The notes: generated by a model not told the origin, from the letters alone. 64,000 bases of DNA from an uncultured Clostridium sp. (GCA_946500615.1 CAMMWP010000004.1:4585-68584); one strand, 5' to 3'; positions 28,093 through 51,284 are shown, counted from the stretch's first letter. A program made the numbers and translations.

Positions 28093-29634
28093 ATGAATCC
28101 ATTATTATTGGGAATAGGGTCAATGTTTATATGTTTAGTAGTATTGTTAATTGTCATGATATTTATCTATATAAAACATAATAAACATGGTGGAAACAAT
28201 GGAAGCGAAGGTACTGCTTCAAATCGAAATGCTTTAAATAGTAATTTAAGTATTGGGGAAGACGAAAAACATGATGAATTTATAAAATCTATACAAGTTG
28301 TTAATGACGAAAGAACAATTTTGGGAACAGTTATAATAAACGGAATTCGTCAAGAAGTTTCTATGGAAAAAGAAGGAGACGGATATATATATTACTTAGA
28401 AAATGAAATCATTGGAGGATATGATCCAGATGTCATGGGAGATAATTTAATTGTTTTTAGAGAAAACACTTTAGAAAATGAACTTTCTGAACAAATAAAA
28501 GATGCGATCGAACAAGTAATTGATGATAATAAGGAAAAAATAGAAAAACAACAAGAACAAGAAAAAAGTAAAGAAAAAATTAGAAGTAAAAATGTTTATG
28601 AGCAAGAACTAGGATATCAAAAGACAATAGGACAAGAAAATAACAAGAAAAGGCAAATTGACATACAAGACATACAAAAAAGAAAACAGGAAAATCTAAA
28701 ACAGCAACGAGAAACAGAAAAACAGCTAAAATCGAAACAAGAGAAAGTAGAAAACAAAGTAAATGATATTAATATAAAACAAGAAGTTGATATGGATACA
28801 AAGGCAACAGATATGGATACAATTGGAAAAAGATTAGAAGAAGCAGGAAAAATAAAAGGAGAAGAAAAAGAAGGTAAATTAGCTTTTGTCGAATCAGATG
28901 ATTTAAAAGACTTAAAAAACGAAAAGGGAGAAAGTTTACAAGGACATTCATCAAGATATGAAGCCGTTTTAGTGGATAAAAAAGGAAGAGTGAGAGATTT
29001 AAACCTAGAAAATGATACACAAGAAGGAACCAATCCAATGGAACATAATTATCAAGTAAAGCAGAATAAAAATGAAAATGTGGAAAAAGGCGATGTATTA
29101 ACAAGGTTAAAAATACAAGGAAAAGAAACTATTGGGATAGAAAATGGTCAATATGGAGAAATAGAAGTGTATCACTCTCATGATAAAACAATTGGTGGAG
29201 AAGGCGTAGAAGGAAATAAAAGCTTAGATAGGCAATTAGAAACAAAAAATTCAAAAAATGCAATAGAAGGACCAGATCAAGCAAGTCAAAAATTAGCACA
29301 AAAATACCAAGATGGATATCGTTCCGTAGAGGAGGCTTATCAAGAAGCAGAACAACACGAAGATATAGCTGGAGAGCCATGTGATGAATTGGAAGTAGAA
29401 GATATTGATGGAGATCCTAATACGGTATCTCATAACCATACAGATGAAATTATTGCGCGATTAATGCAAAATGGAGAAATTAGCGATAAATTTACGGAAA
29501 GAGAAATTAGGCAAAGGGTTGAGAGAGAATGGAACCAAAAAGAAGAAGATATGAGCAAAGAGGAATTTGAAAAAAATATAGAGCAAGATATTGAATTAGA
29601 TGCTGGAAATATGCGTGGCGAAAGAGGATTTTAA
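28093..29634 (+). CDS. Membrane-anchored, highly charged (Lys/Glu/Gln-rich) hypothetical protein
   Basis: 513 aa, one N-terminal TM helix, and a long low-complexity charged middle (EKQQEQEKSKEK..KQQRETEKQLKSKQEK). I recognise no family. Confidence 0.6.
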   Translation: MNPLLLGIGSMFICLVVLLIVMIFIYIKHNKHGGNNGSEGTASNRNALNSNLSIGEDEKHDEFIKSIQVVNDERTILGTVIINGIRQEVSMEKEGDGYIYYLENEIIGGYDPDVMGDNLIVFRENTLENELSEQIKDAIEQVIDDNKEKIEKQQEQEKSKEKIRSKNVYEQELGYQKTIGQENNKKRQIDIQDIQKRKQENLKQQRETEKQLKSKQEKVENKVNDINIKQEVDMDTKATDMDTIGKRLEEAGKIKGEEKEGKLAFVESDDLKDLKNEKGESLQGHSSRYEAVLVDKKGRVRDLNLENDTQEGTNPMEHNYQVKQNKNENVEKGDVLTRLKIQGKETIGIENGQYGEIEVYHSHDKTIGGEGVEGNKSLDRQLETKNSKNAIEGPDQASQKLAQKYQDGYRSVEEAYQEAEQHEDIAGEPCDELEVEDIDGDPNTVSHNHTDEIIARLMQNGEISDKFTEREIRQRVEREWNQKEEDMSKEEFEKNIEQDIELDAGNMRGERGF

Positions 29635-29715
29635 ATTTTTAAAACGAATCCAGCCACATTCGAACTCTTAAAAATATACTATATAGTTGTCTCTCAGATT
29701 AAAAAGACTGAAACA
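29634..29715 (+). repeat. Family-C intergenic repeat (5'-shortened, abuts the stop codon)
   Basis: AAAACGAATCCAGCCACATTCGAACTCTTAAAAATATACTATATAGTTGTCTCTCAGAT. It starts at the TAA of the 28093 gene. Confidence 0.7.
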
Positions 29716-37970: not shown

Positions 37971-38915
37971 GTGAATAATATAAAAATAGTAGCAAATAGT
38001 GCATATTTTCCCAAAAAAGAAGTAAAAAATAACGAGTTGGAAAATTACCTAAAATTAGAAAAGGGATATATAGAAAAAAGAACAGGAATAAAAAATAGAT
38101 ATTATGCAACAAATGAAAAAATAGAAGATATGGCATTAAAAGCAGTTCAAAATATGATAGGTCAATCTGAACAGAATATGGACATTCATCATATAGATTT
38201 GATTATTGTAGCAACAACAAGTACGGATATACTAATGCCGGGAATTGCAAACTATGTTCAAAAAATGTTAGATATACCCCCATGCATGTGTATCGATATA
38301 TTAGCAGGATGTAGTGGATATATTAATGCTTTAGATATGGCTAAAGCCTATATAGATTGTGGAAAAATCAATAAAGCACTAATTATTGGGGTAGATAAAC
38401 TTTCAAGTGTGATAGATGAAAAAGATATGGGAACAGCAATTGTTTTATCAGATGGAGCAGGTGCGACATTGGTAGAAAGGGATGTCAACCATTCTGCTTC
38501 AAAGCTTTATATATCTCATATCAAATCTGAAGGTGCACATAACGAAATATTAACCTATCAATATGGAAAAAAGTTATATATGAATGGAACAGAAGTATAT
38601 AAATATGCAGTGACAGAAACAGTAAAAAATATGAATGAATTGTTGGATAAAGCCAAATGGACATTAGATGATGTTGCCTATATCATACCACATCAGTCAA
38701 ACTTAAAAATTATGAAAGCGATTGCATCTAGATTGCATGTTGGTATGGATAAAATGTATACCAATATACAAACAAGAGGAAATACTTTTTGTGCAAGTAT
38801 ACCGATTGCTTTGTATGAGATGCAAAGAGAGCAACGACTAAAAGTAGGAGATAAAATTATTCTGCTAGGATATGGTGGAGGATTAAATACTGGTAGTATT
38901 TTAATGGAAATATGA
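37971..38915 (+). CDS. fabH: 3-oxoacyl-ACP synthase III
   Basis: GTG start after AAGAGG. LAGCSGYINAL (active Cys), IPHQSN and GNTFCASIP motifs. Confidence 0.93.
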   Translation: MNNIKIVANSAYFPKKEVKNNELENYLKLEKGYIEKRTGIKNRYYATNEKIEDMALKAVQNMIGQSEQNMDIHHIDLIIVATTSTDILMPGIANYVQKMLDIPPCMCIDILAGCSGYINALDMAKAYIDCGKINKALIIGVDKLSSVIDEKDMGTAIVLSDGAGATLVERDVNHSASKLYISHIKSEGAHNEILTYQYGKKLYMNGTEVYKYAVTETVKNMNELLDKAKWTLDDVAYIIPHQSNLKIMKAIASRLHVGMDKMYTNIQTRGNTFCASIPIALYEMQREQRLKVGDKIILLGYGGGLNTGSILMEI

Positions 38916-38933
38916 TAGCTTAAATCAAAAATT

Positions 38934-39030
38934 TTATATAGAATTTCTAATATTCTCCAATTACATTCGTAATTTCATAAAATTTTATATACGGTATCTC
39001 AAACTTCATAAAAGATTAGATTGCATATAT
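38934..39030 (+). repeat. Family-C intergenic repeat
   Basis: TTTTATATAGAATTTCTAATATTCTCCAATTACATTCGTAATTTCATAAAATTTTATATACGGTATCTCAAAC. It begins 18 nt after the fabH stop. Confidence 0.7.
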
Positions 39031-39113
39031 ATGGAGAAATTTTTATTTAAAATTAAGGCAAATATACTATTATACAATAAAAGAATTAATTTAAAAGAAA
39101 GGATGAAGAAAAA

Positions 39114-40043
39114 ATGAAAAGAGCATTTTTATTTCCGGGACAAGGAGCACAAGTTGTTGGAATGGGAAAAGATATTTATGAAAAGTATGATGAAGCAAAG
39201 AAAATTTATGAAGAGGCTTCAAATATTTCTGGAATAGACATCAAGAAACTTTGCTTTGAAGGGCCAGAAGAAGAATTAAACAAAACAGAAAATACGCAAA
39301 TTGCTATATTAACAACAAGTCTTGCAATACTAGAAGTATTAAAGGCAAAAGGAATACAAGCAGATATAGCGACAGGTTTAAGTTTAGGAGAATATGGCGC
39401 TTTGATTTATTCAGGCATTATTCGTTTTGAAGATGGGATTAAACTAATACAAAAAAGAGGTTACTACATGGGAAATTTATTACCAAATGAAACCTATGCT
39501 ATGGCAGCTGTTATTGGTTTAGATTCAGAAAAAATAGAAGAAGTTTGCAAAGAAATTTCCAAAAAAGGAAAATTTATTGTTGTGGCAAACTACAATTGTA
39601 AAGTTCAAACTGTCATTTCTGGAGAAGAAGAAGCTATTGAAAAAGCAACAGAGATGCTAAAATCTATGGGAGCAAAAAGAGTGCTAAAATTAAATACAAG
39701 TGGACCATTTCACACGATAAAATTAGAAAAAGCAAAAGAAGCTTATGAAAAAGAATTAGAAAATGTGAATTTTCATGTGAATGAAGAAATAAAGGTCATA
39801 AAAAATATTGATGGTACATATTACCATAAAGGAGATAACATAAAAGAAATTTTAGCAAATCACATTATTAGTCCAGTAAGATTTGATAAAGCCATTCAAT
39901 TAATGGAAGAAGAAAAAGTAGAAGAATATGTTGAAATTGGACCGGGAAGAACATTAACAGGATTTATAAAAAAGGAAAATAAAGAAGCAAACACTTACAA
40001 TATTAGCAATTTAGAAACTTTAGAAGCATATTTAGAAAAATAA
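39114..40043 (+). CDS. fabD: Malonyl-CoA:ACP transacylase
   Basis: FLFPGQGAQ, GLSLGEYGAL (active Ser) and GPFHT motifs. Confidence 0.95.
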   Translation: MKRAFLFPGQGAQVVGMGKDIYEKYDEAKKIYEEASNISGIDIKKLCFEGPEEELNKTENTQIAILTTSLAILEVLKAKGIQADIATGLSLGEYGALIYSGIIRFEDGIKLIQKRGYYMGNLLPNETYAMAAVIGLDSEKIEEVCKEISKKGKFIVVANYNCKVQTVISGEEEAIEKATEMLKSMGAKRVLKLNTSGPFHTIKLEKAKEAYEKELENVNFHVNEEIKVIKNIDGTYYHKGDNIKEILANHIISPVRFDKAIQLMEEEKVEEYVEIGPGRTLTGFIKKENKEANTYNISNLETLEAYLEK

Positions 40044-40137
40044 ACGATATATATATGTTTTGTCACATATGTGCTAAAATAAATTTTGAATAAAAAGTAA
40101 TCAAAAATGAAATATTTTAAAGAAAGGATGAATCAAA

Positions 40138-40878
40138 ATGGAAGGAAATAAAACTGTATTTGTCACAGGAGCCTCAAGAGGAATAGGAAAAGAAGTAGCC
40201 TTAAAATTTGCAGAAAATGGATATAATGTTGTAATTAATTATGTTTCAAACAAAACAAATGTTGAAGAATTAAAAAAAGAGTTTGAAAATAAAGGAGCAA
40301 AAAGCCTAATCATGCAAGCAGATGTAACAGATGTAGGTGCAATAGAAACACTTGTAAAAACTGCAATAGAAGAATTTGGAAGTATAGATGTGTTAGTAAA
40401 CAATGCAGGTATTACAAGAGATAATTTATTAATGAGAATGAGTGAAGAAGAATTTGATAAAGTGATAGAAATTAATTTAAAAGGAACTTATATTGTAACA
40501 AAAGCAGTTACAAAATATATGATGAAAAAAAGAAAAGGAAGTATTATCAATTTAGCATCTGTTGTAGGAGTGGCAGGTAATGCAGGACAATGCAATTATG
40601 CAGCTTCAAAAGCGGGAATTATCGGATTTACAAAAAGTATTGCAAAAGAATTGGCCTCAAGAAATATTCGTTCAAATGCAGTAGCACCGGGATTTATAGA
40701 AACAGACATGACGGCTGTTTTATCAGATGAAGTAAAAGAAAATATATATAATCAAATCCCATTAAAAAGAATGGGAACGGCTAAAGAAGTAGCAAACTTA
40801 GTCTATTTCTTAGGATCTGATGAGAGTGACTATATGACAGGTCAAGTGATTAATATTGATGGTGGAATGGTAATGTAA
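40138..40878 (+). CDS. fabG: 3-oxoacyl-ACP reductase
   Basis: VTGASRGIG, NNAGI and YAASKAG motifs (SDR), 246 aa. Confidence 0.95.
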   Translation: MEGNKTVFVTGASRGIGKEVALKFAENGYNVVINYVSNKTNVEELKKEFENKGAKSLIMQADVTDVGAIETLVKTAIEEFGSIDVLVNNAGITRDNLLMRMSEEEFDKVIEINLKGTYIVTKAVTKYMMKKRKGSIINLASVVGVAGNAGQCNYAASKAGIIGFTKSIAKELASRNIRSNAVAPGFIETDMTAVLSDEVKENIYNQIPLKRMGTAKEVANLVYFLGSDESDYMTGQVINIDGGMVM

Positions 40879-41003
40879 AAACAAATTGAAAGCAGTATCT
40901 TGCACATTTTTGATACGAAATTCAACCTTCGACATACAAAAAGTATGCCTTCAGTTTGAATTTTGTATCAAAAATGCACAATATACTACTTTGAATTTGT
41001 TTT
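40879..41003. repeat. 125-bp imperfect palindrome filling the fabG-fabF spacer
   Basis: Left arm AAACAAATTGAAAGCAGTATCTTGCACATTTTTGATACGAAATTCAA. The right arm reverse-complements to AAACAAATTCAAAGTAGTATATTGTGCATTTTTGATACAAAATTCAA. The centre contains CATAC-N5-GTATG. Confidence 0.8.
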
Positions 41004-41075
41004 AAAACAGACCAATCAAAAATATCTTGTACTTGAAGATTAAATGGAATATAGAAAAAGAAAGGAAAGAAAAAA

Positions 41076-42317
41076 ATGGAAAGAAGAGTTGTAATTACAG
41101 GTTTAGGAGCAATAACTCCAATAGGAAACAATGCAAAAGAATTTTGGGATGGAATCAAAACCGGTAAATGTGGAATTGATGAAATAAAAAGTTTTGATGC
41201 GACAAACTTTAAAGTAAAATTAGCGGCAGAATTAAAAAATTTTAATCCAGAAGATTATTTTGACAAAAGAGAAGCAAAACGATTAGATAAATTTTCCCAA
41301 TATGCTATGATAGCTGCCAGAGAAGCTTGGAAAGATAGCGGATTAGACAAAGAAACTGAAAATATGGAAAGAGTAGGAATTATTATTGGATCTGGAATTG
41401 GAGGAATTAAAACAATCGAAGTAGAAAACGAAAAATGTATTACAAGAGGGCCCGATAGAGTGTCTCCTATGTATATTCCTATGGGAATTTTAAATATGGC
41501 AACAGGTAATGTAGCAATTGATATAGGAGCAAAAGGAGAGTCTATGGCTATGGTTACAGCATGTGCATCTGGAACACATTGCATTGGAGAAAGTTTCAGA
41601 ATGATAAAACATGGATATCAAGACATTGTTTTGACAGGAGGAACAGAAGCAGGGATTACACCTCTTAGTATAGCAGGATTTACCAATATTAAAGCTTTAA
41701 CAAAATCAGAAGATAAAAGTAGAGCAAGTATTCCATTTGACAAAGAAAGAAGTGGATTTGTTATGGGAGAAGGTGCTGGTGTTATCATATTAGAAGAATT
41801 AGAACATGCCAAAAAAAGAGGAGCAAAAATATATGCAGAAATGGTTGGCTATGGTGCTACATCTGATGCTTATCATATCACATCTCCTGCACCAGAAGGA
41901 GAAGGTGGAGCAAGAGCGATGAAACTTGCTATGGAAGATGGAAAAGTAAAACCAGAAGAAATTACATATATTAATGCACACGGTACATCAACACATTTAA
42001 ATGATGCTTGTGAGACACAAGCTATCAAAACAGCTTTAGGAGAAGAAAATGCTAAAAAAGTAATGGTAAGTTCAACTAAAGGACATACAGGACATTTATT
42101 AGGTGCAGCAGGTGGAATAGAAGCTATTGTATGTGCAAAAGCAGTTGAAGAAGGATTTGTGCCAGCGACTATCAATTATCAAGTTCCAGATGAAGCGTGT
42201 GATTTAGATATTGTTCCAAATGAAGGTAGAAATGTAGAAGTAAAATATGCAATTTCTAATTCACTAGGATTTGGCGGACATAATAGTAGTATTTTATTAA
42301 AAAAATATGAAGAATAG
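41076..42317 (+). CDS. fabF: 3-oxoacyl-ACP synthase II
   Basis: TACASGTH (active Cys), NAHGTST and GHLLGAAG motifs, 413 aa. Confidence 0.96.
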   Translation: MERRVVITGLGAITPIGNNAKEFWDGIKTGKCGIDEIKSFDATNFKVKLAAELKNFNPEDYFDKREAKRLDKFSQYAMIAAREAWKDSGLDKETENMERVGIIIGSGIGGIKTIEVENEKCITRGPDRVSPMYIPMGILNMATGNVAIDIGAKGESMAMVTACASGTHCIGESFRMIKHGYQDIVLTGGTEAGITPLSIAGFTNIKALTKSEDKSRASIPFDKERSGFVMGEGAGVIILEELEHAKKRGAKIYAEMVGYGATSDAYHITSPAPEGEGGARAMKLAMEDGKVKPEEITYINAHGTSTHLNDACETQAIKTALGEENAKKVMVSSTKGHTGHLLGAAGGIEAIVCAKAVEEGFVPATINYQVPDEACDLDIVPNEGRNVEVKYAISNSLGFGGHNSSILLKKYEE

Positions 42318-42359
42318 AAGCATTTCATCATTTTAAAAGTATAATTATGAATTATGAAT

Positions 42360-42557
42360 AAAGATGATATGATTTAGATTTCATAAATTCTTCGGTTCAA
42401 TACGATAATTAAGAATTTGTAACATCATATATTGAGCCTCTTTCACTCAGACCCTCACTATGTGAGTACCGTGAACATTCCTCAATATATGATTAACAAA
42501 TTCTAAAATATCTCCAATCACATTCAAAATTTATTCAATCTAAATCATATCATCTTT
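42360..42557. repeat. ~200-bp palindromic element made of two inverted family-C-like arms
   Basis: Exact 21-bp termini AAAGATGATATGATTTAGATT / AATCTAAATCATATCATCTTT. The arms stay complementary inward. The right arm (..AATTCTAAAATATCTCCAATCACATTCAAAATTT..) matches the 38934 family-C copy. Confidence 0.8.
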
Positions 42558-42667
42558 ATAGAGATAAAAAGTTATATGAAATTACAGATTTTATAATAAA
42601 TTAATTATTTAGTACTTTTCAAATTAAGAAAAATGATGTAAAATGAAAACAAAAACGGAGGTAGAAA

Positions 42668-43129
42668 ATGGATTATAAAGATATTAAAAAATTAATGGAT
42701 GACATGGGAAATTCTAAGCTAGAAGAATTAGAAATCGAATTTCCAGATGGTGTAAAAATAAGCATGAAAAAAAGTGAAAAAAGAGAAGTTATAGTAGAAC
42801 CACATGTAATAGAAGCAAGTGCACCAATTTCTGTTCCTGTAGTAAAACCACAAGAAGAAAAAGGAATGGTTACCATAGAAAAAAAGGAAGAAAACTATAA
42901 AGTAATAAAATCACCAATGGTAGGTACATTTTATGCAAGTTCATCACCAGACAAAGAACCATATGTAAAAGTAGGAGATAAAATTTCAAAAGGGCAAGTA
43001 GTATGTATCGTAGAAGCCATGAAATTAATGAATGAAATTGAATCTGAATTTGATGGTGAAATCGTAGAAATTTGTGTAAAAAATGAAGATGTTGTAGAAT
43101 ACGGAACCCCATTATTTAAAATTAGATAG
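42668..43129 (+). CDS. accB: Biotin carboxyl carrier protein of acetyl-CoA carboxylase
   Basis: C-terminal biotinyl domain with VEAMKLMNEIE. 153 aa. Confidence 0.92.
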   Translation: MDYKDIKKLMDDMGNSKLEELEIEFPDGVKISMKKSEKREVIVEPHVIEASAPISVPVVKPQEEKGMVTIEKKEENYKVIKSPMVGTFYASSSPDKEPYVKVGDKISKGQVVCIVEAMKLMNEIESEFDGEIVEICVKNEDVVEYGTPLFKIR

Positions 43130-43177
43130 TGTCCAATTAGCTGTCCAATTAGGGACGTTTCTTTTTGAGACATTTTT
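43127..43177 (+). repeat. Family-A repeat
   Basis: TAG-TGTCCAATTAG-C-TGTCCAATTAG-GGACGTTTCTTTTTGAGACATTT. It begins at the accB TAG stop. Confidence 0.8.
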
Positions 43178-43249
43178 ATGTAAACAACAAAATGATATAT
43201 TCTACCAAATGAAAAAGATAAATGATAATATGGAAGGAAAGAGAATAAC

Positions 43250-43672
43250 ATGTTAAATAAAGAGCAAATTAAAGAGATTATTCCTCAAAGGGAACCATTT
43301 TTAATGATAGATGAAGTGGAAGCATATATTCCGGGAGAAAGTGCAGTAGCTTATAAGAATGTAAGTGAAGATGAATATTATTTTAAAGGCCATTTTCCGG
43401 GAAATCCAATTATGCCGGGTGTTTTGATTGTAGAATCATTAGCACAAACTGGTGCAGTTGCGATTCTTTCGATGGAAGAGAATAAAGGAAAGAATGCACT
43501 TTTTGGTGGTGTTGATAAATTAAGATTTAAAAAACAAGTGGTTCCAGGGGACAGGTTAAAATTAGAAGTGAAAATTATTAAAAGAAAAGGACCTATTGGG
43601 GTTGGAGAAGCATTAGCAACAGTTGATGGTAAAGTGGCAGTAAAGGGAGAGTTAACTTTTGCAGTAGTATAG
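43250..43672 (+). CDS. fabZ: 3-hydroxyacyl-ACP dehydratase
   Basis: [30 protein letters not shown] motifs. 140 aa. Confidence 0.95.
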
Positions 43673-43681
43673 ATAAATCAT

Positions 43682-43775
43682 TATATATTAGAATTTCTAA
43701 AACGATTCTGTCGCATTCGAACGTTAAAAATATACCATATGGCTATTCTCAATTAGAAAACTGAATGGTACTATT
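43682..43775 (+). repeat. Family-C intergenic repeat (fullest copy)
   Basis: TATATATTAGAATTTCTAAAACGATTCTGTCGCATTCGAACGTTAAAAATATACCATATGGCTATTCTCAATTAG. It begins 10 nt after the fabZ stop. Confidence 0.75.
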
Positions 43776-43802
43776 CTTAGTTATAGTAATAATACAACAA
43801 AT

Positions 43803-43848
43803 AAAAAATGATTATAGCATACATATATTTTATCTATAATCATTTTTT
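43803..43848. terminator. Bidirectional Rho-independent terminator (fab operon / XRE gene)
   Basis: Perfect 15-bp stem AAAAAATGATTATAG / CTATAATCATTTTTT with A/T runs on both sides. The right arm overlaps the XRE gene stop. Confidence 0.7.
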
Positions 43849-44107
43849 ATGCTTCATAATATTGATCTGTGTTATCATATAAATCTTCTAAAGTAATACC
43901 TAAAACTTTACAAAAAGCCAAAGCTTCAAAGTCTTTTACTGTTTTTTTGCCATATTCAATTTCATAAATATCACAAATATACATTGTAACACCAATTAAA
44001 TCTAATTTTTTACAAATTTCTGGTTGTGAAATTTTTTTTAATTTTCTGTATTTTCTTAAATTTTTTCCAATAATATTTAAATTCCCATTTAATGTTTTTA
44101 CCTTCAT
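43847..44107 (-). CDS. XRE-family helix-turn-helix transcriptional regulator
   Basis: IGKNLRKYRKLKKISQPEICKKLDL.. (HTH_3-like). The ATG at 44107 is 5 nt from GGGAGG. The ORF-track GTG at 44113 overlaps the RBS. Confidence 0.8.
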   Translation of the reverse strand: MKVKTLNGNLNIIGKNLRKYRKLKKISQPEICKKLDLIGVTMYICDIYEIEYGKKTVKDFEALAFCKVLGITLEDLYDNTDQYYEA

Positions 44108-44391
44108 GAGCACCTCCCATAAGTTAAAGATAACTGATTTAACTTATATTTTATAGCAAAATTCACTATTATATTACAGGTTGAAACTGTAAATATTACA
44201 AAAATATTTCTAAACAGTGACAAATTAGATACATTTTTTTAGAAAACTTGAAAGTGATCTACAGGATGTGGTATATTAAAAATAAGAAAGCAACAGGATG
44301 TAGTATAAGTTTTATGAAAATGAATGTAATTTTAAAATATAAATTTTCATGAAGCAGATGATATTAAATCAAAAGAGGAGGAGCTTATAAG

Positions 44392-45969
44392 ATGAGTTTT
44401 TTTAAGGGAAGGCTATTATCAATAACAAGAAAAACAGAAGGTATTACTTTAATAGCCCTTGTTATTACAATAATTGTATTATTGATTTTAGCAGGAGTAA
44501 CAATAGTGACATTAACAGGAGAAAATGGAATATTAACAAAAGCAACTGAATCAAAGAAAGAAAACGAAAAAACAGAAATAATTGAAAGAATAAAATTAGA
44601 TGTAGTTGCTAAACAAGCAGAAAATTTAGGAACTATTTCACAAGAAGAGTTAATAGAAATTTTAAAAAAATATGGTACATTAATAGATAAGAACACATTG
44701 ATTACCACTAAAGGTAATTATGAAATATTAGTTTCTGATATATATAATGGAAATATTGAAGTTTCAATTGTAACAACACCACTAGAGAATTTTGAATACA
44801 CTTTAGATAACGAAAATAATATTGTAACTTTAACTAAATATATAGGAACAGAATCTAATATATATGTTCCAGCAACATATACAATTAATAATGTAGTATT
44901 TAATACTATGCTTTTTGCTAGTTTTTCTTCTCAAAGTTCTACTTTCTCTGGTAATGCTAATATTCTTACTATAGAATTTGAAGAAGGCGTTTCAACAAAT
45001 GAAATGAGTTATATGTTTGCAAACTGCATAAATTTGCGTTATATTAAAACTTATCCTGAATACAATGGTATTTGGTGGACTGGTGTATTTTATAATGATA
45101 CTAATTTAATTAGCGCTCCACAAATTCCAAATGATATTGAAAATATCAGAATAACAAATTTTTATAATAAATGTATAAATCTTTTAGGAAATTATTCAAT
45201 GCCAGAGAACTATGACAGTAATTATAGCACAAATGTATTTGGCGAATGTATAAACATTAATAAGAATATAAATGTTGTTTGGTTTGGCGATAGTATTACA
45301 GCAGGTACAACTACAGGGGGGGAATCTTTTGTTTCATATTTGCGTGAAGATTTAGAAGATACAGGAATTTCAAACTATGCAATAGGAGGACATACATTGA
45401 GCTATGGTTACGATCAAAGTGATAATGCTATTTCTGAATCGATAATAACTGATATTAGCAAAATGGGAATTCATGAAAATGTAGATTATGTATTTATTTC
45501 AGCAGGAACAAATGATTTTGCACATAATTCAACACGTAGACCATATGGAACATACAGATTTGCAGATATAGGAACTATTAATGATAATACATCTTCTACT
45601 ATTATGGGTGCAATCAATAATATTAGTACAATTGTAAACAAAAAATTTCCTAATGCTACTTTAATATTTACAACACCTATTACAAGGTCGGACTATGATA
45701 TTGAGGGTGCACTAGCATCAGATGGTAGTGTTTATACAGTTCATCTTAAAGATTATGTTGATGCTATAAAAACATTTTGTGATTCAAAAGGAATATCTTA
45801 CATTGATTCTTATACAGAAAGTGGATTAATAGTGACTGAAGATTCCTGTGATGGTACACAAAATTATATGAATGATCAGACACATCCTACGTTAAAAGGA
45901 CAAAAGGTTTTAGAACAATATATTCTAAATAAGTTAATCACGGATTATGGTTTCACTTCCAATAATTAA
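44392..45969 (+). CDS. Secreted/anchored protein: pilin-like N-terminal leader, BspA/DUF285-like repeats and a C-terminal SGNH (GDSL) hydrolase
   Basis: Leader GITLIALVITIIVLLILAGVTIVTLTGENGILTKATESK. The middle has MSYMFANCINLRYI-type repeats. SGNH blocks are VVWFGDSITAG, AIGGHTL, ISAGTNDF and DQTHPT. Confidence 0.8.
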   Translation: MSFFKGRLLSITRKTEGITLIALVITIIVLLILAGVTIVTLTGENGILTKATESKKENEKTEIIERIKLDVVAKQAENLGTISQEELIEILKKYGTLIDKNTLITTKGNYEILVSDIYNGNIEVSIVTTPLENFEYTLDNENNIVTLTKYIGTESNIYVPATYTINNVVFNTMLFASFSSQSSTFSGNANILTIEFEEGVSTNEMSYMFANCINLRYIKTYPEYNGIWWTGVFYNDTNLISAPQIPNDIENIRITNFYNKCINLLGNYSMPENYDSNYSTNVFGECININKNINVVWFGDSITAGTTTGGESFVSYLREDLEDTGISNYAIGGHTLSYGYDQSDNAISESIITDISKMGIHENVDYVFISAGTNDFAHNSTRRPYGTYRFADIGTINDNTSSTIMGAINNISTIVNKKFPNATLIFTTPITRSDYDIEGALASDGSVYTVHLKDYVDAIKTFCDSKGISYIDSYTESGLIVTEDSCDGTQNYMNDQTHPTLKGQKVLEQYILNKLITDYGFTSNN

Positions 45970-46112
45970 ATATCCTACACTAGCTTATATACTAAATTTC
46001 TTGTACCTCGAAATGGTCCGAATGAATAGATTTGAGAAAATATAAAACCTCATGTATAATATAATTATGTAACTTGATAGTTGCAAATATATTAAACAGG
46101 AGGTTTTTTGAT

Positions 46113-46698
46113 ATGACAAATGAGCAAATAATAAACAAAATGAAAGATGACATGAAAATGAGAGGATTTTCGCACTGGACAGAAGAAAGTTATTTAGGGA
46201 AAACAAAAGATATAATGAAATATTTTAAAAAAACAATGGAAGAAGTAAAAATAGAAGAACTAAGGAATTTTCTATCAAAATACTTAATAGAAGAAAGAAA
46301 ATTATCAGAACGAAGTGTAAATTACTACAATTTTGTAATAAGATTTATGTATGAAGTAACAATGGATAAAATAATAAATAAGAAGCAATTAGCAATGTAT
46401 AGAAAAAGGAGAAAAATGAAAGATGTGCTAACAAAAGAAGAGTTAAGCACTTTTTTTAATGCCTGTGAAAATTACATGTATAGAACAATATTTATGATGA
46501 TATATGGAAGTGGACTAAAAGTATCAGAGGCAGTAAATTAAGAGAAGAAGATATAGATAGTAGAAAATGAGAATATTTGTAAGAGCAGAAAAAGGAGGAA
46601 AAGATAGGTATATAGTATTACCAAAAACAAGTTTAGAAATGTTAAGAAAATGTTACAAAATGTACAAGCCCAAACATCCAGAAGGATATATTTTTTAA
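46113..46698 (+). pseudogene. Tyrosine recombinase/integrase relic (frameshifted, catalytic half missing)
   Basis: An N-terminal SAM-like domain (MRGFSHWTEESYLGK..ERSVNYYNFVIRFMYEV) runs to GSGLKVSEAVN and then a stop at 46540. The +1 frame continues LREEDIDSRKMRIFVRAEKGGKDRYIVLP..GYIF and ends at 46698. The HxxR and Tyr boxes are absent. Confidence 0.8.
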
Positions 46699-47211
46699 AA
46701 TGTATATTGACAAAGATAATATTAATGATGGGATTTATTTTGATTTATTTACAAGAATTCAAGTAAAAGAAGATGAAAGTCAAGAATTAAGAGAGTGTGT
46801 ACAAGATTTAAATACTAATATAGTAATAGCAAATGGAATTATTGGTAACGTAACGAAAGAAGGGTTTCTAGAAGGCGGAGACATAATTCAAGGAATAAAT
46901 CTTAACTGGACAAAAAACAAAAACTAGCATATGTACATTATAAAATGGGAAAATTAGTTTCTTATGTTCCTAATTTTAATTTTAGTGGTAGATATGTCAA
47001 TGCTCCAATTTCAAATGATACAAGAAATATTTGTAAATCTCTTGTGAACGGGAACAGGTATGTAATGGAATAGTATCAATAAATAGAAATATATTATCTA
47101 GAATACGGCAGTTATAAAATTACAAATATAAGGATATTAGCATTATATAGTTATTTAGGAAAAATAGTAAATGAAAATACGAAAAAAGAGAAAAAGAATG
47201 AATTTTACAAA

Positions 47212-47240
47212 TATAAAAAGGCAGGGAAACCTGCCATAAA
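47212..47240 (-). terminator. Rho-independent terminator of the GLUG-repeat gene
   Basis: GGCAGG-GAAA-CCTGCC hairpin. On the - strand it is followed by TTTTTAT, 8 nt after the stop. Confidence 0.75.
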
Positions 47241-47247
47241 AAGTTTA

Positions 47248-48804
47248 TCATTGCCATTCTAGTATTGGGTATCCATTATTTATATTTCGTTTATCTTCTT
47301 GCCAGTTAATTCCAAGTACCGTATAGAGTTTTTTCATATCATTACTTGTTTTTACTTCTATTCCGGTAATATTAATATCGTTTGCATTATTGACAATGTT
47401 TTCTTCATAGTAATTATTATTTATTTTTATTGCTCCTATTTGTTGACCGATAATACCACCTATTTGATTATCAATTCCATTAACATTACCAGTATTATAA
47501 CAATTATAAATTTCTGCATCTTCGATTGTTCCAATTATTCCTCCTGCAATGTTTCCTTCAGTTTGAATTTGTGCTCTATTATAAGAATCAATTATTATTG
47601 AATTACTGTAGTTTTTTCCTACAATGCCACCTGTACATGTGTTAATTCCTTTAACATTACCCAAATTAGTATTATAACATAATTTTATAATGGAAGAATA
47701 GTAGCAACTTCCTGCAATTCCACCACAGTATCCCAAACCTACAACATTAGCATTATTATAGCATTTTTCTATATTACTATTATTTTGGTTTTGACCTGCA
47801 ATTCCTCCTATATGAGAACCTGTACATTGAATAACAGCATTGTTATTACAATTTTTTATAGTTGCATTATCAGTATTAATCCCTACAATTCCACCAGTAC
47901 TATTATTACCAGTTATAGTATTTGTATTATAGCAGTTTGTTACTAAAGTATTAGAAAAAGAACATCCAACAATACCACCTCCAAAGCTACATTTAATTAT
48001 ACTATTATTGTAGCAATTAGAAATAATTCCACCATTATATAGATAGCCACAAATTCCACCCGTGGCACTTCCACCAACGATGTTATTATTTAATCCTATT
48101 CCCATATTTAAGATTTTTCCATTATTAACTAAGCCAAATAATCCTTGTGCTTTATCTGATGTATTTATATAGATTCCATTAATTTCATAATTTCTGCCAT
48201 CAAATACTCCACTAAATGGTTTATTTGTTTCTTTATTAGGAGAAGAATTTTCCATTAGATATAATCCTATCGGTTCCCATTCTTCATTTATATCTAATGT
48301 AATATCATTCCCTAAATATACATACCAACCTTCATAAGTATTACCGATATTCACATCATCCCTAAATGCTTTTAATTCGTCATAGGTACTTATTTTTAGC
48401 ATTTTACTTTGCTCTATTATTTCTCCAGTTTCATCTACATAATACATTCTTTTAGTATCATTCATATTTATTAAAAAACTTCCATCTCCATTATCTGTAA
48501 CTGTAAAATCTTTATTATTTCCAAATTGTTGTTTTATAGCATTTTCTAATTTTACTTTATCTATTTCTAATGTATTAGCATCTTCCATTCGACTTGATGT
48601 AACAGCTAACACCAAACTTTCTTTTTCTTGTGATTCTTCTGTTTTATTTTTTGCTTCTGTTGCTCTAGTTAAAATTCCGTTATCTCCAGTCAAAGTTGCA
48701 ATTGTTACACCTGCTAATATTAACAAAACAATTATTGTAACGACAAGAGAAATAAGAGTAATACCTTTTTTACCATATTTTAATGCTTTTCCTAATTTTT
48801 CCAT
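47248..48804 (-). CDS. Secreted/anchored protein: pilin-like N-terminal leader plus GLUG-motif beta-helix repeats
   Basis: Leader GITLISLVVTIIVLLILAGVTIATLTGDNGILTRATEAK. The C-terminal ~300 aa are repeats of GGI(V/A)G..N(C)YN. FSGVFDGRNYEINGI opens the block as in the giant peptidase. The ATG at 48804 is preferred over the TTG at 48825. Confidence 0.8.
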   Translation of the reverse strand: MEKLGKALKYGKKGITLISLVVTIIVLLILAGVTIATLTGDNGILTRATEAKNKTEESQEKESLVLAVTSSRMEDANTLEIDKVKLENAIKQQFGNNKDFTVTDNGDGSFLINMNDTKRMYYVDETGEIIEQSKMLKISTYDELKAFRDDVNIGNTYEGWYVYLGNDITLDINEEWEPIGLYLMENSSPNKETNKPFSGVFDGRNYEINGIYINTSDKAQGLFGLVNNGKILNMGIGLNNNIVGGSATGGICGYLYNGGIISNCYNNSIIKCSFGGGIVGCSFSNTLVTNCYNTNTITGNNSTGGIVGINTDNATIKNCNNNAVIQCTGSHIGGIAGQNQNNSNIEKCYNNANVVGLGYCGGIAGSCYYSSIIKLCYNTNLGNVKGINTCTGGIVGKNYSNSIIIDSYNRAQIQTEGNIAGGIIGTIEDAEIYNCYNTGNVNGIDNQIGGIIGQQIGAIKINNNYYEENIVNNANDINITGIEVKTSNDMKKLYTVLGINWQEDKRNINNGYPILEWQ

Positions 48805-49363
48805 AATTAAATCAATTCCTTTCAATTTTTCTTTAGATTTTCTGAAATTATATTACTATACCTGTAAAACAATTGAAGTAAAAATAGGTGCATATCTATT
48901 TTGCTTTTTAAGATAAATATCTTGCAAAGAAGGTTGCAAATATGAATAAGCTAAGAAAAATATTTTAATTGATGTATTGAATATCTGTTTTTTTAAAATC
49001 CATCTTGAGTTATAATTACATTTTTTCTTATAAATTCATCTAATTTTTCTTCTAAATTATTATTTGTATTTTCTATCATTCGTATTACCCTATTTCATTA
49101 ATAATCTATAAATATGTATTTTTATTATTTTATCAATTTCTTTCATGGTTATACTACATTTTATAGAAATTTATAAAAAAATAAAACTATTAAATATGGT
49201 TAAGTATTAATTTATTATCATAGTTGAAGAAATAAGGTGCAAATAATCAAAAAACATATTCTACTTTTCAGAAATTTTATATTTATTATAGTGGTTATAC
49301 AACCAATAGTCAAGTATCCTATGAAAATTATATAATATTTTTATAAATTTTTAGGAGATAAAT

Positions 49364-49615
49364 ATGATAAAATTAGATATAGAAAAGGGAATATATTTGT
49401 TTAAATTGGAAAATATTTTGAAAGAGAGAAATATTAGTATAAATAAATTAATGAGAGATACAAATACAGATTTTAAAGTTTTAAAAAGAATAATGACAGG
49501 TGAGTTAGTAAGATTTGATATATTTGTTATAGCAAGATTATGCGATTATTTGAATTGCAGAATTACAGATATAGTTGAATATATTCCAAATAAAAATAAA
49601 CCGCATTTTCAGTAA
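49364..49615 (+). CDS. Small XRE/YozG-type helix-turn-helix regulator
   Basis: 83 aa: LENILKERNISINKLMRDTNTDFKVLKRIMTGELVRFDIFVIARLCDYLNCRITDIVEY. Confidence 0.75.
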   Translation: MIKLDIEKGIYLFKLENILKERNISINKLMRDTNTDFKVLKRIMTGELVRFDIFVIARLCDYLNCRITDIVEYIPNKNKPHFQ

Positions 49616-49771
49616 GTTTGCCTTTTTTTCATTTGATTAATTTTTTCTTTAGCTTGTTTTTTCCAAGTTTCAAAATCTTAAGCAAGTTTTTTATTGTCTT
49701 TATTTTTCCTAACTTGCATAAATTTTTGTTGATAAGTTTTTCTATATTCTCTCATAGCCTTATTATATACT

Positions 49772-49964
49772 AAGCAAAATACTATACCAGTATTATTTAC
49801 TACAGGTGCTAGTGAAAGAAACAAAGTATTAAATATATATGACCTTGTAGGAAATGTAGGCGAGTGGAATTTGGGACATGTTATATCAAATAAATTATCA
49901 GTGGGATTTATTCAGCTCTACAGGTAGTAATGCCTATTATGGGTTCCGTGTAGTTGCACTTTAA
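49772..49964 (+). pseudogene. C-terminal fragment of an FGE-sulfatase (SUMF1)-type domain, frameshifted
   Basis: It reads ..NIYDLVGNVGEWNLG.. (compare the GLYDMxGNVWEW signature). After a frameshift it reads ..STGSNAYYGFRVVAL-stop (GFR ending). No N-terminal part or start codon is present. Confidence 0.6.
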
Positions 49965-50077
49965 AATGTGACTTTTGTGTCAAGAATTATTGCGGCGTTT
50001 GCCCCCAAAAAAAGGGGCTTGTCAAGATAATTGTAAATTTATGTTTATGAGTTAATAAAAAAAATCCTTCCAAAAAC

Positions 50078-50105
50078 TTGTAATTTTCAAGATTATTGAT
50101 ATAAT
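50078..50105 (+). promoter_or_regulatory. Sigma-A-type promoter candidate for pfkA
   Basis: TTGTAA (50078-50083), a 16-nt spacer, then an extended -10 TGATATAAT (TATAAT at 50100-50105). Confidence 0.6.
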
Positions 50106-50141
50106 ACTATATGGACATGACAAGTGAAAGGGAGGATTTTT

Positions 50142-51284
50142 ATGTTAAAGAAAGTAGCAATACTAGCAAACGGTGGAGATGTATCAGGATTTAATGCAGT
50201 AATCAGAGCCATAAAAAAAACATGTGAAACAAATGGAATAGAATGTTACGGATATATTGACGGATACAGAGGGCTAGTAAAAAATAATTATGTTAGATTA
50301 GATGGAAATGAAATTGCTTCAGGTATTTTGCCAAAAGGAGGGTCTATTATAGGATCTTCAACAAATGCCATTGTTTTTCATTACAAAGTAGAACATGAAG
50401 ACGGAACAGTAACATATGAAGACTTATCAGATCAATGTGTAAAAAATGTAAAAGAAGCAGGATTTGACTGTATCTTTACCTTAGGTGGAGATAGTACGCA
50501 AAAATCAGCAAGAGACTTATTCCTAAAAGGAATCAATACAATTGGTGTACCAAAAACAATAGACAATGATGTAGCATGTACAGATATAACATTTGGCTAC
50601 AATACAGCTGTGCATGTAGCAACAGAAGCAATTGATAGACTACACACAACAGCAGAAACACATGACAGAATTATGGTATTAGAAGTTATGGGAAGATTTG
50701 CAGGCTGGATAGCTTTAGAATCAGCCATTTCTGGAGGAGCAGATGTTGCATTAATTCCAGAGATACCATATGATATCCATAAAGCAGCAGAAGCAATTAA
50801 TAAAAGAAAAGAACAAGGTAAGAGATTTAGTGTAGTTGTTGTTTCAGAAGGCGCACATCCAAAAAATGCTGAACAAACAACACATTCAGCAGAAGGAATT
50901 GATAATAAGGCAGGAATCAGTGTAAAATTTGGCGGAGAAGGAAATAGAGTTGCTAAAGAACTTCAAGAATTAACCGGATTAGAATCAAGATGTACAATTT
51001 TAGGATATATGCAAAGAGGAGGAACACCAACAGCATATGATAGAGTATTATCTACAAAATATGGTGCAAAGGCAGTAGAACTTGCAATGGAAGGAAAATT
51101 TGGCGTTTTAACTGTTATAAAAAATGGAAAGTTAGATTGTGTGCCATTAGAAGTTGTTGTTGGAGAAAATAAAGAAATTGGAGCTGTTCAAGGTGGTACA
51201 GCAGAAAGTAATGTGAGATATGTCACAATGGATGATGAATTAGTAAAAACTGCAAGAGATATCGGAATTTGTTTAGGCGATTAG
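50142..51284 (+). CDS. pfkA: 6-phosphofructokinase
   Basis: ILANGGDVSGFNAVIRA, LGGDST, PKTIDNDV and MGRFAGWIA motifs. The ATG at 50142 follows AGGGAGGA. Confidence 0.9.
   Translation: MLKKVAILANGGDVSGFNAVIRAIKKTCETNGIECYGYIDGYRGLVKNNYVRLDGNEIASGILPKGGSIIGSSTNAIVFHYKVEHEDGTVTYEDLSDQCVKNVKEAGFDCIFTLGGDSTQKSARDLFLKGINTIGVPKTIDNDVACTDITFGYNTAVHVATEAIDRLHTTAETHDRIMVLEVMGRFAGWIALESAISGGADVALIPEIPYDIHKAAEAINKRKEQGKRFSVVVVSEGAHPKNAEQTTHSAEGIDNKAGISVKFGGEGNRVAKELQELTGLESRCTILGYMQRGGTPTAYDRVLSTKYGAKAVELAMEGKFGVLTVIKNGKLDCVPLEVVVGENKEIGAVQGGTAESNVRYVTMDDELVKTARDIGICLGD

Follow-up and report, generated by a model that had tools for sequence, protein, structure and literature searches.

We analysed a 64,000-nt stretch of DNA from an uncultured Clostridium sp. 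(GCA_946500615.1, CAMMWP010000004.1:4585-68584), hereafter the window, in which 6.47 kb of accessory DNA separates fabZ from pfkA. This spacer encodes two small XRE-type regulators (XRE1 and XRE2), two proteins that share an N-terminal leader and carry different C-terminal modules (an SGNH/GDSL hydrolase in one, GLUG repeats in the other), and several gene relics (Table 1). The G+C content of the interval is 18-29%, versus 30-37% for its flanks. The host is a low-G+C uncultured gut Clostridia bacterium; its nearest public records, which bear the labels "uncultured Clostridia" and "Clostridium sp. CAG:354", are metagenome-assembled genomes of chicken-gut and human-gut origin, and the metagenome runs that contain the window DNA come from chicken gut. 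An earlier note on this DNA had described the interval as a decaying accessory island, the remnant of an integrative element with modular secreted proteins as its cargo.

Variable content of the spacer in sister species and strains

Eighty pfkA-centred loci, one genome per species, were compared with the window (L numbers denote fetched loci and X numbers metagenome runs). In 18 of the 80, fabF-accB-fabZ lies at most 10 kb upstream of pfkA. Half of these (9/18) have a spacer of 91-479 bp without a leader gene, in which the fabZ stop leads directly to the pfkA promoter block; eight have one or two leader-family genes with other C-terminal modules, and the last has an unrelated membrane protein. 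The modules in the occupied loci are GLUG repeats (L026, L031), the BspA-type leucine-rich repeat (LRR) domain LRR_5 (L013, L014) and DUF285 (L049), in addition to modules without a known domain (L012, L013, L014, L020 and L037). Homology restarts at 50044-50058 in nearly all sister loci compared, and empty and occupied states are intermixed in a quick tree of the flanking genes, drawn without support values.

Variation was also found within the species, as contig L004 and run X10 join position 43850 to 47175, with zero depth over 43923-46091 in X10. By the criterion of empty sites, found in nine species, the interval is a genomic island; together with the same-species deletion variant, this bears out the decaying accessory island of the earlier note, and the locus is real, decaying and hypervariable. 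Its description of modular proteins of one leader family with swapped C-terminal domains agrees with the other modules of the sister loci. The comparison of related genomes that it proposed yielded the empty sites and not the attachment (att) repeats, since a repeat search of the window detected no direct repeats bracketing the interval. ARAGORN found no tRNA gene in the window, and thus no tRNA-type att site.

The islands of two sister species include a HipA_C-like kinase gene (L037:6047-7234 and L047:1244-2431), of which no relic was found in the window. In another sister species from chicken gut (L027:6261-9600), a bAvd and RVT_1 reverse transcriptase pair of a diversity-generating retroelement (DGR) and a 1782-aa Fn3 protein are located upstream of pfkA.

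Table 1. Predicted features of the fabZ-pfkA interval and its flanks (window positions)
Feature	Position	Strand	Remarks
fabZ	43250-43672	+	NCBIfam FabZ, E 7.9e-50; interspecies homology stops at the fabZ stop codon
Terminator-like hairpin between fabZ and XRE1	43788-43863		Inverted repeat
XRE1, small helix-turn-helix (HTH) regulator	43847-44113	-	Divergent from the leader gene; weak HTH_3
3.3-kb segment (XRE1, SGNH gene, insertion-sequence relic, remnant)	43851-47174		Missing from one same-species haplotype
Conserved control region	44114-44391		Five-species alignment
Leader + small helical/beta module + degenerate BspA-type LRR + SGNH/GDSL hydrolase	44392-45969	+	525 aa; leader G|ITLIA
Palindrome TTACAATAATTGTA in leader codons (V)ITIIV	44463-44476		Intact in the SGNH gene of the window
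Truncated IS91-family element	45986-46701	+	Left terminus and frameshifted integrase-like ORF; no transposase gene
Remnant with two short ORFs	46702-47174		ORFs at 46700-46927 and 46945-47073
Terminator of the GLUG gene	47220-47235
Leader + GLUG-repeat protein	47248-48825	-	518 aa from ATG at 48804; Glug E 2.6e-20
GLUG-gene upstream region	48826-49197		Relics of two small ORFs of intact elements; alignment with L102
XRE2, HTH_26 regulator	49364-49615	+	Pfam E 1.5e-15
Last ~55 codons (169 bp) of a ~362-aa DUF6076 backbone gene	49596-49764	-	Tn4451-like element
Frameshifted C-terminal fragment, FGE-sulfatase-type (lectin-fold) leader-family protein	49796-49964	+
Hairpin flanked by TGTCAAGA... 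direct repeats	49978-50033		Known at this species' locus alone
pfkA promoter and ribosome-binding-site block, conserved	50044-50141	+	Right limit of the variable interval
pfkA	50142-51284		Right conserved flank of the spacer
ORF, open reading frame.

Genes and element relics of the island

At the left end, the minus-strand XRE gene that had been noted is present, with an HTH_3 score of 20.6 bits that lies below the cut-off of 23 and a weak match to HipB/Y4mF-type antitoxins. XRE1 is 94-95% identical by tblastn in four sister species (L014, L020, L031 and L037), and in the first three of these homology to the window is unbroken from fabZ to ~44315. The XRE1/leader module, which adjoins the fabZ flank without a break in three sister species and also occurs in the fourth, therefore looks resident rather than cargo. 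The control region between the two divergent genes (~250 bp) keeps in all five species a palindrome (TTACAGG..CTGTAA), two direct repeats ACAGGATGT(G/A)GTATA and a promoter-like TTGAAA-18-TATATT, while the genes behind it differ among the five. XRE1, the operator region and the leader start are thus read as a resident module with exchanged 3′ cargo, and XRE1 may repress or otherwise control its neighbour via the ACAGGATGT repeats. For candidate inverton arms at 44141-44173 and 44313-44345, the inverted form was not seen in 12 runs and the same-species contigs, which may hide a minor orientation.

The protein encoded downstream had been called a BspA/DUF285 and SGNH hydrolase protein. Its SGNH/GDSL part is well supported, with Lipase_GDSL_2 at E 2.4e-15 (58 bits against a cut-off of 32.9) and the catalytic blocks WFGDSITAG, AIGGHT, SAGTNDF and NDQTHP (GDS, G, GxND and DxxH) readable in the translation. 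The BspA part failed in Pfam, where residues ~130-290 gave no LRR_5 or DUF285 match up to E 5, and was recovered through homology: residues 8-335 align at 40% identity to protein P0004, which has an LRR_5 domain at 207-320, so the middle of the SGNH protein is taken as a degenerate copy of a BspA-type LRR. No RNA runs containing the SGNH gene were found.

Behind the SGNH gene, a tyrosine recombinase relic had been reported as frameshifted and missing its catalytic half. That description held; the role of island integrase did not. The relic matches Phage_int_SAM_4 (E 2.5e-10), has two frameshifts and a change of the first catalytic Arg to Lys (GLKVSE versus GLRVSE), and stops at about residue 195, so that residues ~196-285 with HxxR and Tyr are gone in comparison with intact 285-aa relatives, and no open frame holds the R..HxxR..Y set of a functional enzyme. 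Its read-through sequence retrieved 1,667 relatives, the best of which are 83-91% identical, many being 285 aa long and most lying on very short contigs. The intact 285-aa relatives carry the RHRY motifs (GLRVSE, HSLRHG and MEYIH), and in every context fetched their gene is followed immediately by a gene for a 343-372-aa Zn_Tnp_IS91/Y2_Tnp transposase, both domains being present in L092-L098 and L140. At the DNA level, 45986-46701 matches a 2.4-kb element (L092/L098) over its left terminus and first third with 85-88% identity, and nucleotide comparison with these copies found no trace of the transposase in the window segment. In metagenome contigs this segment has 3-6x the depth of its neighbours and numerous variant letters, which a multicopy element would be expected to show. 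The relic is thus a truncated insertion sequence (IS) of the IS91 family and not an island integrase. The order XRE (minus strand), leader-LRR-GDSL gene and intact IS91-like element is found again elsewhere on a chromosome (L140/L141), and a shorter relic of the same IS lies behind a different leader gene in L037 and L047; these few cases would fit IS-linked co-mobilisation or leader-to-IS cassette exchange.

In the right half of the island, the minus-strand leader-GLUG gene and the second, plus-strand XRE gene were both confirmed by Pfam, with Glug at 71.8 bits (cut-off 20.5) in three stretches. The strongest indication of their origin came from the short DUF6076 segment at 49596-49764, for which metagenome depth reaches ~80x the baseline. 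A metagenome scan gave 33 loci, 27 of them with an 84-95% identical copy, and wherever a locus was examined, this copy formed the 3′ end of a DUF6076 gene of ~362 aa that runs on the opposite strand. Linked to it are genes for a Mob_Pre relaxase and for a large serine recombinase with Resolvase, Recombinase, Zn_ribbon and DUF4368 domains, together with an HTH_36/DnaD-like gene and a gene of 165 aa. On the other hand, the repeat at 49570-49790 had no match in plasmid or phage collections, and its 27-nt core no exact match in viral contigs.

In four of the elements (L102, L100, L104 and L126), a leader-family gene is located between Mob_Pre and DUF6076. The cargo of L102 is a GLUG protein whose first 70 residues are nearly equal to those of the window protein, and 48618-49197 of the window is collinear with the cargo of all four except for a 367-bp deletion, located at 48957 relative to L102-type cargo, and XRE2, which stands where L102-type elements have a 62-aa ORF. 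The region upstream of the GLUG gene retains only the start (48942-48956) of a 66-aa CopG-like ORF, and the relic of an 89-aa ORF on the minus strand. The Tn4451-like features (recombinase, Mob_Pre, attL/attR) are all present in L119, L117 and L102. The right half of the island is therefore the wreck of a Tn4451-type mobilisable element, of which the cargo and the DUF6076 stump survive.

Upstream of the GLUG gene, 28-nt imperfect inverted repeats (49164-49191 and 49326-49353) with a 13-nt perfect core AAATTTATAAAAA enclose 134 bp that contain TTGACT-17-TATAAT, an 11/12 promoter match directed at the GLUG gene. An invertible promoter at 49164-49353 was considered and rejected, as the same 12 runs and same-species contigs, which may hide a minor orientation, held no inverted form. 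Promoter-like sites in the scan were no more numerous than in shuffled sequence.

At the right end, the frameshifted FGE-type fragment that had been noted is present and reads ...NIYDLVGNVGEW...YYGFRVVAL*. It is too short for Pfam and had no direct match there; its assignment comes from an alignment with the L085 leader protein, at 47% over 30 residues (407-436) inside the FGE-sulfatase domain at 382-479, and its end (..YYGFRVVAL) resembles the L085 end (..ITGFRVVLYMK). Since L085 is a leader-FGE protein, the fragment appears to be the tail of a third leader-family member, as had been suspected. No template-repeat copy of the fragment, as in a DGR, was found in the island. The GCCCC/GGGGC hairpin (GCCCC-N8-GGGGC, 50001-50018) and its flanking direct repeats lie where they had been placed; they were found at no other locus and are absent from the empty sites. 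The lost FGE-type gene probably had its terminator in this hairpin region. The direct repeats were also considered as att scars: the right one shares with the leader core the 9-mer ATAATTGTA, which occurs four times in the window when both strands are counted, and the sequence after it in that repeat is not leader sequence.

Other observations concern the flanks. The 16-nt loop (43818-43833) of the hairpin between fabZ and XRE1 is reverse-complemented in L004 and X10, which is either a flip-flop polymorphism of the hairpin or an assembler effect. About 80 nt directly after the fabZ stop (43682-43775) are ~80% identical to 29634-29712, which follows the stop of another gene (29634), and the two stretches seem to form a small repeat family. 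The fab cluster (37971-43672) ends with accB-fabZ, and in empty-site species (L016, L017, L022, L025 and L032) pfkA comes next, so accC, accD and accA are away from their usual place in this clade. In the slightly more distant L030, L033 and L036 (PfkA 95-96% identical), pfkA does not follow fabZ and is preceded by a small-membrane-protein operon and a 167-aa TrmL-type methyltransferase-like gene (both identified by eye), which makes the fabZ-pfkA junction itself a clade-specific rearrangement. Rfam gave no match over 43000-51000.

Leader-coding DNA and the leader proteins

The palindrome TTACAATAATTGTA in the leader codons is the point at which both intact IS91-like elements and intact serine-recombinase elements are inserted in other genes of the family, as read from junction sequences in L098, L092, L120, L119, L117 and L029. 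In L119, a whole 9,141-bp element lies inside a leader gene, with the flanks ...GITLIALIITI and IIVLLILAGV..., and joining these in silico gives an open 429-aa leader protein. L117 has the same right junction, and so has L029 at this very hotspot, where a truncated leader gene, 1.1 kb upstream of pfkA, is directly joined to the C-terminal end of a TnpX-like serine recombinase gene (Recombinase, Zn ribbon, DUF4368; L029:503-1433). L029 shows an element caught in the integrated state here. The IS91-like element is found at the same codon, ITI|IVL, as read from the two junctions in L098 and from the right one in L092/L093 and L120; when the L098 copy (2,385 bp) is excised in silico, a leader ORF of 205 aa is regained. 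Separately, the DGR-bearing locus L027 contains two leader 3′ stubs, each starting at the ITI|IVL codon.

Possibly, the leader DNA TTACAATAATTGTA at ITI|IV serves as a shared landing pad for an element-driven exchange of pilus-displayed adhesins and enzymes, a reading that we put forward tentatively. Each insertion would silence the resident family member and bring another one, the serine-recombinase element carrying a leader gene and the IS91-like element adjoining one that it could co-mobilise. If so, elements could attach at any paralogue in the genome, and fabZ-pfkA and similar hotspots would be their graveyards. In the window itself, the two leader stretches (44438-44603 and 48602-48767) form a 166-nt inverted repeat, 73% complementary and 4 kb apart. 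Recombination between them would exchange C-terminal modules between promoters; no variant with the modules of the two window genes swapped was seen.

As for the proteins, their N-terminal 130 residues retrieved 7,602 protein matches among 8,000 scored candidates. For some of these relatives the sources give the name ComGC, PulG pseudopilin or type II secretion system protein. Most of them have no C-terminal Pfam domain; GDSL, LRR_5 and FGE-sulfatase are among the domains that do occur there. The layout is K-G|ITLIALVITIIVLLILAGV..LTGxNGIL, then a small helical/beta module and an exchangeable C-terminal module. K-G|ITLIALVITIIVLLILAGV is found in both window proteins and 59 aligned relatives, with near-invariant G, T, L and I. 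In the element-borne leader genes of L099, L105 and L123, the frame reads ...LLILAR and is lost directly after the leader; these frameshifts could be pseudogenes, sequencing errors or a switch.

The leader has the layout of a class III signal, with a short basic segment, a Gly and a ~21-residue hydrophobic alpha-1N, and its best sequence match in the PDB is the N-terminus of the MshA pilin, in register. It is a type-IV-pilin-like signal without Glu5, and the proteins that bear it are putative pilins. We infer that cleavage would fall at G|I and that the proteins would act as adhesins or enzymes, either exposed on type IV pilins or anchored in their manner. As modular pilins with grafted modules are established (PMC8179133), the leader proteins plausibly work alike.

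Several results weigh against this assignment and are shared by an alternative in which the leader is an ordinary uncleaved signal-anchor or Sec signal, with the proteins membrane-tethered or secreted and unrelated to any type IV filament. The Glu at +5 is absent, the position being Ala in the SGNH protein and Ser in the GLUG protein. Pfam N_methyl (PF07963) reaches 17.4 bits in the GLUG leader, against a cut-off of 21.2, and does not match the SGNH leader. An AlphaFold model of the N-terminal module (pLDDT, the model confidence score, 75) has helices at 16-42 and 47-77 and three short strands, and in a Foldseek search of the PDB with this model no pilin was matched (best E 1.5). Moreover, no pilus genes are near the leader genes in the 64-kb window, as judged from the ORF list and not by a search with hidden Markov models (HMMs). 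We nevertheless consider the signal-anchor explanation rather doubtful, because it leaves aside the invariant Gly and the hydrophobic helix that follow the basic segment in the prepilin register of MshA, and the ComGC/PulG labels that public sources give to relatives. Minor pilins without Glu5, such as those of the GspK type, are also known.

Assembly of the island and comparison with known systems

Taken together, the fabZ-pfkA spacer is probably a hypervariable slot for the leader family in a genus-level clade, and the window a mosaic of three layers. The first would consist of the resident XRE1, the operator/promoter and the leader gene with LRR and SGNH esterase modules, followed by the truncated IS91-family element, whose one-ended transposition may have taken the neighbouring SGNH gene along. 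The second would be the Tn4451-like wreck with the leader-GLUG gene, the small-ORF relics, XRE2 and the 169-bp DUF6076 end, and the third the last ~55 codons and terminator of the leader-FGE-type gene. It is likely that the leader-FGE gene stood first next to pfkA and that its leader then received the serine-recombinase element, as happened in L029. One later deletion, from inside DUF6076 to near the FGE 3′ end, would then have removed the recombinase end and most of the FGE gene, leaving the present abutment 49764/49772 and, after it, the old terminator hairpin.

Some points weigh against this account. A search for the end sequence of the serine-recombinase element found neither attL nor attR in the window, and as no element end survives there, the order of events is a reconstruction. 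The one-ended IS91 transposition of the SGNH gene is backed by two co-occurrences. The short gene remnants described earlier at 46700-47073 exist and match nothing, the remnant at 46702-47174 having no Pfam match and no tblastx relative among the fetched loci. Finally, the read evidence consists of assembled contigs, which hide minor variants.

The model of the earlier note can be put as a single integrative element, brought by a tyrosine recombinase, which delivered all the cargo and now decays in place. An integrase fragment, pseudogenes and low G+C do occur together in an interval that is empty in relatives, and the presence of mobile relics stood. The single element with a tyrosine integrase is, however, largely refuted and very improbable: the integrase fragment is part of an IS91-family element of 2.4 kb that encodes a Y2 transposase itself, three sister species without an integrase have XRE1 and its promoter joined to fabZ without a break, no flanking att repeats were found, and a second, unrelated element has left its relic, so that a serine-recombinase relic and an IS take the place of one element. 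Another explanation, compatible with the layered mosaic, is that the mobile relics are incidental and that turnover proceeds mainly by homologous recombination of imported DNA, with crossovers in the conserved fabZ/pfkA flanks and leader DNA. Most occupied sister loci indeed lack any trace of a mobile element, yet the leader genes that their identical flanks enclose are not the same; L037 has XRE1, the leader start and the IS relic in common with the window and differs from it in the C-terminal module in between; and the leader stretches of the window form the inverted repeat described above. Still, leader repeats of 73-77% DNA identity are a poor substrate, and the element-linked breaks in L029 and L027 fall exactly at the leader palindrome. 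We regard incidental relics as less likely and keep the element-built mosaic as the preferred reading.

The leader family is very large, as more than 7,600 database clusters share its N-terminus, and it dominates the variable surface repertoire of widespread uncultured small-genome gut Clostridia in chicken and human gut. If its members are true modular pilins without Glu5, the concept of the grafted module would reach enzymes such as SGNH esterases, and the rule that Glu5 is needed for assembly would be challenged. The link between leader DNA and two elements offers a concrete, testable mechanism for shuffling C-terminal modules between strains. The locus is also a cautionary case, in that the "integrase relic" of an island may belong to an insertion sequence, and could be a strain marker in gut metagenomes.

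Modular type IV pilins are known from Streptococcus sanguinis, where PilB bears a vWA module and PilC a lectin module (Raynaud et al. 2021, PMC8179133), and more than 1,200 such proteins in 264 architectures have been listed (PMC8179133). The leader proteins resemble them in joining a short pilin-like N-terminal carrier to a bulky module, here SGNH, GLUG, BspA LRR, DUF285 or FGE-type. They differ in that the leader has Ile at +1 and Ala, not Glu, at +5, with the N-methylation motif of InterPro/Pfam unreached, and in that the small module has no pilin fold match. Their genes, furthermore, occupy a hypervariable slot well away from any pilus locus, and display on a pilus is a prediction.

The serine-recombinase elements resemble the mobilisable transposons of the Tn4451/Tn4453 family, which have the large serine recombinase TnpX and the Mob/Pre relaxase TnpZ (PMC3158075, PMC5704250): L119, L117 and L102 encode a Resolvase, Recombinase, Zn-ribbon and DUF4368 recombinase and Mob_Pre in ~9 kb, and are site-specific. 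Unlike that family, their target is leader-coding DNA of a multigene pilin-like family and their cargo a leader-family member instead of a resistance gene; of the backbone, the window keeps a stump of 169 bp besides the cargo. IS91-family elements transpose by a rolling-circle mechanism, with distinct oriIS and terIS ends and without target duplication, and one-ended transposition takes adjacent DNA in 1-14% of events (PMC13181058). Relatives of the window segment share with IS91/ISCR elements a Y2 HUH transposase with a Zn-finger N-terminus, an upstream accessory ORF that overlaps or abuts the transposase gene, sequence-specific insertion, and the lack of inverted repeats or of target duplication beyond an ambiguous ATA. 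In contrast to IS91/ISCR, the accessory ORF is a 285-aa tyrosine-recombinase homologue and not Orf121, and the target is a palindrome in coding sequence rather than a CTTG/GTTC tetranucleotide; the window holds the left third alone.

A mobile element that splits a pilin gene has been described in the pneumococcal prophage of comYC (Croucher et al. 2016, PMC4774983). There too, the 5′ coding part of a pilin-type gene is the attachment site and the gene is disrupted. At the leader genes, on the other hand, the target occurs in dozens of paralogues per genome, two unrelated types of element share it, and one of them brings a replacement gene of the same family. The components are of known kinds; what is new is that two unrelated elements share leader DNA as their target, one of them with members of the family as cargo.

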